IMG/VR virus record: IMGVR_UViG_3300025942_000001
From: a virus
Taxonomy: Duplodnaviria; Heunggongvirae; Uroviricota; Caudoviricetes
DNA length: 64,000 nucleotides
Direction: 5' to 3' (one strand)
This document shows, piece after piece, positions 25,181-25,671 of this stretch; positions within the stretch are counted from its first letter, which is position 1; every line of letters begins with the position of its first letter. The notes beneath the pieces are model-generated. The model saw nothing but the letters and a program-made list of their open reading frames with translations. It did not search any database and was not told the origin of the DNA. Both the position numbers and the translations under genes were made by a program.

Positions 25181-25209
25181 TTGACAACCAAAACTGAATT
25201 TGCTACTTT
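25181..25209 (+). promoter_or_regulatory. near-consensus sigma70-type promoter
   Basis: TTGACA-N17-TACTTT with TG just upstream of the -10. Confidence 0.8.
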
Positions 25210-25214
25210 TAAGG

Positions 25215-25671
25215 CCCCGCAAGGGGGATGGCCCGGAGGGTCAGGGGTAAAAGCCTGATTCCAAAGGTGTTCACACGAAACTTGAGAACTCAATAGAGAT
25301 AGCGCGGAAGATACCGAGCTAACAACGGATACACCAATTAAATTGGTGTGTATAGATCCGGGGGATTATTTTTCCTAATGCCCTGTTAGTGACCGACGTG
25401 AGGAACCGGCTACGTGTGGGGAAAATACACGGGACCGCATACAAAAGACTCACAGTGAAACAAAAGCGCAGCCTCTTTCACGGGGTAATAATCGTGAATA
25501 TGGTGAAAGTCAAGAGAGTTGATAAATCGATTGTTCCGACTCTGCTGTGATCATGCCGGTATGAATCCGATCATTTATCCATCTTGACGGAAACTGAAGT
25601 GCTACCCGATTGTTTTAGGGGCCGGTGACCCGCCCAATGCTACGGACATATAAACAATCGGTTTGCAGTAT
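25215..25671 (+). ncRNA. candidate large structured ncRNA 1 (~455 nt)
   Basis: No credible ORF. Stems 25331-38/25342-49, 25509-15/25582-88, 25516-20/25538-42, 25606-15/25652-61; possible pseudoknot 25521-27/25573-79. Confidence 0.65.
25281..25296 (+). promoter_or_regulatory. rRNA-leader-like (boxA/processing stem) motif
   Basis: CTTGAGAACTCAATAG matches, from memory, the conserved TTGAGAACTCAA(T/C)AG of actinobacterial rrn leaders; ~70 nt after the promoter, preceded by GCAA-loop hairpins. Confidence 0.6.

Follow-up and report, generated by a model that had tools for sequence, protein, structure and literature searches.

In the rrn operons of Mycobacterium tuberculosis, boxC is described as a specific high-affinity site for NusA, in which an AUA is critical for KH binding (Arnvig 2004, Beuth 2005; as cited in PMC2724277). 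The boxA-like consensus that binds NusB of Bacillus subtilis is AUGAUCUUUGAAA, and the boxA of E. coli is UGCUCUUUAACA (PMC13753749). Outside rrn operons, boxA stands before CRISPR arrays and suhB, where it protects untranslated RNA from Rho (as mentioned in PMC13753749). Among phages, T7 carries a working boxA downstream of its early promoters for host RNA polymerase, A0-A3 (Savalia 2010; as cited in PMC3709561).

The window of 64,000 nucleotides analysed here spans positions 57028-121027 of an IMG/VR virus record that is 137,582 bp long and has terminal repeats of 100 bp. At 25281-25296 on the + strand, the window carries CTTGAGAACTCAATAG, a 16-mer of the type found in rrn leaders. Its boxA-like half, CUUGAGAAC, aligns with both the B. 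subtilis consensus and the E. coli boxA, and its boxC-like half, CUCAAUAG, contains AUA. The NusA-site RNA of M. tuberculosis that was crystallised is reportedly GAACUCAAUAG, which is contained in the motif. The features of the locus are as follows.

24538-24564, + strand: perfect 12-bp GC-rich hairpin, 30 nt past the stop codon of a 290-aa ORF
25181-25209, + strand: promoter, with -35 TTGACA (25181-25186), a 17-nt spacer ending in TGC (extended -10, TGn) and -10 TACTTT (25204-25209)
25215-25226, + strand: CCCC-GCAA-GGGG hairpin, at or near the 5′ end of the predicted transcript
25241-25258, + strand: TCAGG-N8-CCTGA hairpin, with arms 25241-25245 and 25254-25258, in a boxB-like position
25281-25296, + strand: the 16-mer, comprising the boxA-like and boxC-like halves
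25297-25671, + strand: untranslated RNA segment of 375 nt, moderately structured (z = -1.9 versus shuffles)
25672-25756, + strand: tRNA-shaped element with an aberrant anticodon arm (Rfam tRNA, 50.1 bits), at the 3′ end of the untranslated stretch
25799-25933, + strand: first small ORF of an array, with an AAGGA ribosome-binding site 6 nt upstream
28860-29523, + strand: second long untranslated stretch (about 660 nt), within the array (z = -2.2)
34640-34662, + strand: terminator-like hairpin followed by a T-run

The promoter, the two hairpins and the 16-mer had been proposed in an earlier note on this DNA, and all of them were found where it had placed them (25181-25209, 25215-25226, 25241-25258 and 25281-25296). 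The 16-mer occurs once in the window and once in the whole 137,582-bp genome, and every other site differs from it by at least three mismatches. By 4^16 arithmetic, about 6e-5 exact copies would be expected by chance at this genome size. The 16-mer starts 71 nt past the promoter end on the same strand, the transcript presumably beginning at about 25215. Given this low expectation, the sense orientation, the position 71 nt behind a promoter of an over-represented family and the conserved flanking G residues described below, a chance match is not credible. The site lies in a 1.29-kb stretch (24508-25798) between the stop codon of the 290-aa ORF (24507) and the next start codon (25799). This stretch contains no ORF longer than 64 aa and none that could be tied to a gene, and the tRNA-shaped element is the only recognisable gene in it. 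The hairpin at 24538-24564 is probably the terminator of the upstream transcription unit, as judged from its position and stem; a strong T-run is absent. In predicted ensembles the 16-mer is only moderately accessible, and this prediction is uninformative.

The promoter at 25181 belongs to a family that is over-represented in the phage genome. The + strand has 17 matches to TTGACA-N17-TAnnnT and the - strand one, compared with 2.3 ± 1.2 on both strands in dinucleotide shuffles. Most copies read gcTTGACA-N17-(t)gcTAGACT, with the -10 forms TAGACT, TAAGCT or TAGGCT. The copies in the window start at 4437, 5693, 13015, 18312, 21215 and 25181, and many of the copies in the genome lie within its island of tRNA genes. 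The copy at 25181 combines a consensus -35 with a -10 that is weaker than the usual one (TACTTT versus TAGACT). It is absent from a generic sigma-70 scan because TACTTT agrees with TATAAT at only three of six positions. TACTTT fits the TAnnnT -10 of the phage's own family, a form that we take to suit actinobacterial promoters. The element had been called a phage promoter; it is credible as a promoter, but it is not of a phage-specific type, being a host-type (sigma-A-like) promoter within a phage-wide family. A TTGACT...TACTTG pair at 25045-25076 was also considered as a promoter and was ruled out by its 20-nt spacer. Between this pair and the promoter, at 25120-25163, a 7-bp hairpin (AACCCTT...AAGGGTT) is followed directly by TTTGAGAGCTAGTAG, which resembles the 16-mer in degenerate form and lies about 135 nt before it. 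It could be a decayed second copy of the motif, and a chance resemblance is equally possible.

The two hairpins behind the promoter differ in what they indicate. GNRA-capped GC hairpins also stand a few bases past the -10 of several other promoters of the family. The CCCC-GCAA-GGGG hairpin is therefore a general feature of transcript 5′ ends, probably a 5′-end stabiliser, and its proposed role as a component of an rrn-like module was not upheld. Between the TCAGG/CCTGA hairpin and the downstream 16-mer lie 22 nt, so that a stem-loop is present in the boxB position.

To place the 16-mer, one genome per prokaryotic species was scanned for the exact sequence, which gave at least 120 loci; about 80 of the 120 matches listed were in Actinomycetota. 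Wherever the start of the 16S gene fell inside the fetched piece, the exact 16-mer was located 122-247 nt upstream of it, on the sense strand. Such copies were found in Leucobacter, Rothia, Nesterenkonia, Branchiibius, Mycobacteriales, a Nanopelagicales genome and Propionibacteriaceae. The resemblance to the rrn-leader motif, which the earlier note had put forward, thus amounts to identity at 16 of 16 positions with copies upstream of 16S in many genera. With up to one mismatch allowed, the motif was present in 45 of 301 evenly sampled Actinomycetota genomes (a tally that takes in one unpublished genome, G091, on which none of the conclusions depends), and a reversed control produced six hits altogether. 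Variants in this sample were ...CAACAG, TTTGAG..., ...CCATAG and ...CGATAG, often with several copies per genome, as expected of rrn operons. We take the TTTGAG... and ...CAACAG variants to be of the Mycobacteriales and Streptomyces type. The exact form was found in only 2 of the 301 sampled genomes, yet phages of both Mycobacterium and Streptomyces carry it, so that the variant does not identify the host.

When 30 copies taken from rrn leaders, phages and elsewhere were aligned, conservation was limited to the 16-mer itself and to G residues at -4 and +2. Both flanking G residues, which are more than 90% conserved in this alignment, are present in the window copy. The core is thus kept without flanking homology. 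In rrn leaders as in phage copies, the motif stands behind a structured element, and the arrangement of a hairpin followed by the box, noted earlier as the rrn antitermination layout, is common to both.

The motif is not restricted to rRNA. Three Leucobacter genomes carry the 16-mer outside rrn as well, 44-45 nt upstream of the host tmRNA gene (L041:3503-3518, L069:555-570 and L127:6408-6423). The same arrangement is seen in Mycobacterium phage PegLeg, where a one-mismatch motif (L180:2506-2521) lies within the tRNA cluster between a tRNA gene and the phage tmRNA gene, about 24 nt before the latter. These copies upstream of tmRNA genes tie the motif to untranslated stable RNAs generally, and the rrn-leader box may also serve tmRNA genes. 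As a separate observation, two viral contigs and one Streptomyces genome, the latter at a site that may be a prophage, each have a type II hammerhead ribozyme on the motif strand, 0.75-2.1 kb further downstream. The pairs are given below.

L005: motif 4224-4239, ribozyme 2047-2106
L020: motif 2199-2214, ribozyme 1395-1458
L073: motif 6583-6598, ribozyme 7450-7519

Next to rrn and tmRNA genes, the motif recurs in cultured actinophages. A 33-nt probe from a Mycobacteriales rrn leader matched 64 phage records, 60 of which are named actinophages. These comprise 31 Mycobacterium phages, mostly of cluster M (Rey, Bongo, PegLeg, MrMagoo, Aziz, Estes and others), 26 Streptomyces phages (Manuel, Gilson, FlowerPower, HaugeAnator and others), two Gordonia phages and one Nocardia phage; the remaining matches were to two E. 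coli phages and two fecal 'Bacteriophage sp.' records. Both coliphage matches lie inside genes, whereas almost all of the listed actinophage matches have no annotated gene at the site. The earlier note had named absence of the motif from rrn leaders or from related phages as grounds against its proposal; rrn leaders and other actinophages were both found to carry it. In all seven cultured actinophages that were inspected (from Mycobacterium cluster M, Streptomyces, Gordonia and Nocardia), the motif is on the sense strand relative to the downstream genes. Six of them (MrMagoo, Gilson, Manuel, Bantam, Nocardia phage P3.1 and FlowerPower) have the motif in a stretch of 1.1-1.8 kb that is devoid of genes. 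A run of small genes begins about 300-480 nt past the motif, and in four of the six the gene-free stretch is at a genome end. In five of the six isolates, the leader that separates the motif from the first gene has a much stronger fold than shuffled sequences (z = -3.7 to -6.6).

MrMagoo, L179:1294-1774: strongly folded leader
Manuel, L182:1204-1550: strongly folded leader
Bantam, L186:1137-1540: strongly folded leader
Nocardia phage P3.1, L187:2021-2327: strongly folded leader
FlowerPower, L188:1087-1387: strongly folded leader

These five may be structured leader RNAs that have not been described before. Several phage loci carry two copies of the motif, 400-770 nt apart. Among uncultured viruses, the exact 16-mer gave 29 hits in IMG/VR compared with 25 for a reversed control, so that the raw count is not enriched. 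The two sets differ in composition: 18 of the 29 motif loci had a GC content of at least 0.5, compared with none of the 25 control loci (Fisher p = 7e-7). About 13 of these 18 GC-rich loci show a non-coding, hairpin-then-box context, and about 11 of the 29 hits look like chance matches in low-GC coding DNA. No description of the motif in actinophages was found in the open-access literature, including any of boxA in mycobacteriophages.

Downstream of the 16-mer, the window resembles these phage leaders in being untranslated over a long distance. About 580 untranslated nucleotides separate the predicted transcript start (about 25215) from the first start codon at 25799, and about 500 nt without a supported gene, including the tRNA-shaped element, lie between the 16-mer and that codon. 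For the tRNA-shaped element, ARAGORN gives a 4-base 'anticodon', and the variable arm is long. Tandem small ORFs on the + strand then run to about 34.2 kb, which makes an array of about 9 kb, and the hairpin with T-run at 34640-34662 is the probable end of the transcription unit. Rfam searches with E values up to 5 assigned no family to the leader or to either untranslated RNA. The untranslated RNA showed no similarity, beyond the motif, to the leaders of the other motif-bearing loci. Between the 16-mer and the first gene no intrinsic terminator was found, and the leader has no C-rich, G-poor (rut-like) tract typical of Rho loading sites. A partner for the motif was sought in the 9.7 kb downstream. 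The best duplex with the motif region had -17.5 kcal/mol, weaker than the -19.7 ± 1.9 kcal/mol of shuffled queries, in agreement with the earlier statement that a complementary second arm is missing downstream. An arm of an RNase III leader-trailer processing stem was excluded on this ground, since no partner beyond chance exists in this 9.7 kb.

Taken together, we consider it fairly probable that the 16-mer is an rrn-type boxA/boxC nut-like site that loads Nus factors and protects an untranslated phage RNA from termination. By this proposal, transcription by host RNA polymerase would begin from the sigma-A-type promoter at 25181. Once about 65-80 nt, including a hairpin, had been transcribed, CUUGAGAACUCAAUAG would be exposed in the RNA. 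By analogy with rrn operons, NusB-S10 would then bind the boxA-like half and NusA, through its KH domains, the AUA-containing boxC-like half. Together with NusG, these factors would turn the polymerase into a termination-resistant elongation complex of the rRNA type, which would transcribe through 580 nt of folded untranslated RNA (the leader, the 375-nt RNA and the tRNA mimic). The complex may continue across the small early-type gene array of about 9 kb with its second untranslated stretch of 660 nt, and it would perhaps also assist folding of the RNA. In both untranslated stretches, Rho would otherwise be expected to terminate transcription.

Several observations speak against this assignment. 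At its 5′ end the boxA-like half reads AAAC, unlike the GCUC and GAUC of E. coli and Bacillus, although this part also varies among actinobacterial rrn leaders. The leader contains neither a rut-like tract nor an intrinsic terminator, the motif is only moderately accessible in predicted folds and the -10 element is weak. Further, about 30 other tRNA-type genes of the phage have promoters without the 16-mer, and no close relative of the phage was found by which conservation of the window copy could show.

A maturation role for the motif was considered as well. Here, the motif would be a maturation or folding signal that marks the 5′ leader of stable RNAs for a nuclease or chaperone, and a processed, stable phage RNA would result. 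Such a signal would be consistent with the occurrence of the motif before RNAs that are cut from precursors (16S, host tmRNA at about 45 nt and phage tmRNA at about 24 nt) and with the strongly structured leaders downstream of it in five of six isolates. The untranslated RNA of the window also ends exactly at the tRNA-shaped element, a natural cutting site for RNase P/Z. However, a second arm that could form an RNase III stem is missing, and in six of seven isolates the motif heads protein-coding early operons and not an annotated stable RNA. In addition, the published biochemistry that was found links the sequence to NusA (PMC2724277). We regard maturation as an unlikely main function. The two roles are not exclusive, since the rrn complex also chaperones folding (PMC10250234).

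The origin of the phage and of the region around the 16-mer bears on a second alternative. The record encodes a portal, a tail tape-measure protein, a class II ribonucleotide reductase, an RNA ligase and a polynucleotide kinase-phosphatase, together with 32 tRNA-type genes, at an overall GC content of 39.8%. One tRNA outside the window (G000:C1:45379-45451) has a CTA anticodon, labelled Pyl by ARAGORN, and would read amber stops. DNA searches of cultured phages gave no match to the phage, tblastn gave none for the terminase, and relatives of the 290-aa protein are essentially absent. When metagenomes were scanned with the 16-mer plus its 3′ flank, two unrelated matches resulted. The GH25 lysin matched 121 phage records, all but one of which are phages of Mycobacterium, Rhodococcus, Gordonia, Corynebacterium or Saccharomonospora. 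An island of about 10 kb (24-34 kb of the window) has a GC content of about 50% and carries the 16-mer, the two long untranslated stretches and very small genes; no further strict-family promoter was found inside it. The nearest matches of its 387-aa gene are in the Streptomyces phages Zuko and KimJongPhill and in viral contigs with a GC content of 67-70%, and the loci related through this protein are at most 50% identical and lack the 16-mer. The 387-aa protein (27040-28203, phrog_2319, function not known) is common to Streptomyces, Gordonia and Rhodococcus phages, and it is also found in Aeromonas phages of about 220 kb and in many Salmonella and Vibrio phages. Judged from the GH25 lysin, the Streptomyces-phage-like 387-aa gene and the TAnnnT promoters, the host of this phage with 39.8% GC is probably an actinobacterium.

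Given this island, the 16-mer might be a functionless passenger that arrived with GC-richer DNA from a high-GC actinophage, or else a chance match. The step in GC content (50% versus 39.8%) and the kinship of the largest island gene with Streptomyces-phage genes would suit this reading, as would the IMG/VR hits that resemble chance matches in low-GC coding DNA (about 11 of 29). On the other hand, all 16 positions and both flanks are intact while the surroundings have diverged past recognition, and the motif has the correct place and orientation behind a promoter of the phage's own family. This makes a functionless origin distinctly unlikely.

It is also conceivable that the motif acts in trans as a decoy, an abundant early RNA that would titrate Nus factors away from host rrn operons and so aid host shut-off. 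Its identity to a host-type site behind a promoter with a consensus -35, and its place at the head of an early-type array, would suit such a take-over function. We judge this very unlikely, however, because the genome has a single copy of the motif and Nus factors are abundant, and because in other actinophages the motif always has the orientation and place of a cis leader for the genes that follow, an arrangement not required of a decoy. Finally, binding of a dimeric host or phage regulator to the near-palindrome TTGAG-AA-CTCAA at the DNA level is still less likely: the site does have 5-bp inverted arms with a 2-bp spacer, but its orientation to downstream genes is fixed in seven of seven isolates and also in rrn and tmRNA contexts, its asymmetric 3′ part (AATAG and the G at +2) is conserved too, and it is located downstream of promoters, in transcribed leaders.

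Returning to the nut-like site, a broader reading may be put forward tentatively. Unrelated groups of actinophages, namely Mycobacterium cluster M, several Streptomyces groups, Gordonia and Nocardia phages and this AT-rich 137-kb phage, might systematically mimic the leaders of stable-RNA operons and thereby recruit the rRNA-type elongation complex to early transcripts that begin with long folded non-coding RNAs. The phage unit described here would then amount to an rrn-like operon in miniature, with stable RNAs (the 375-nt RNA, the tRNA mimic and the 660-nt RNA) among its products. Synthesis and folding of these RNAs would depend on the complex.

Early transcription control in phages of Actinobacteria is poorly understood, despite thousands of sequenced genomes. 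A conserved 16-nt host signal would mark their early leaders and give an easy experimental handle. If the proposal is true, borrowing of the host machinery for rRNA antitermination, known from T7, would be a general phage strategy beyond Proteobacteria. The copies before tmRNA genes suggest that in Actinomycetota the signal serves stable untranslated RNAs generally, beyond rRNA.

Compared with known systems, the window shares some features with each and differs in others. With lambda nutL and nutR, which consist of boxA and boxB and act with N, it would share the principle of an early-leader RNA element that assembles Nus factors on RNA polymerase. Lambda, however, needs N on boxB, whereas the box found here is of the rrn type and not a weakened lambda boxA, and no boxB-type loop was identified. 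Among the neighbouring ORFs scanned, none was an N-like gene, although tiny arginine-rich proteins would escape such searches. The boxA elements before CRISPR arrays and suhB belong to host genes of Gammaproteobacteria, while here the box is carried by a phage whose host is apparently actinobacterial. Among phages, the early-promoter boxA of T7 is the nearest precedent. Both are virulent-type phages with a host rrn-type antitermination signal, here a probable one, behind host-type early promoters, and neither case implies an N-like protein. The present locus differs from T7 in the host phylum and the box sequence, in the actinobacterial boxC half, in the 580 nt of structured untranslated RNA and in the tRNA mimic. 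The closest known system overall is the rrn nut-like site of M. tuberculosis. The window lacks the 16S gene of actinobacterial rrn operons, the TGTGC/TGTGT... sequence downstream of the core and a processing-stem partner. It has in common with their nut-like site the 16-nt core, the G residues at -4 and +2, the upstream hairpin, the sense orientation in a leader (here predicted) behind a sigma-A-type promoter and the AUA.
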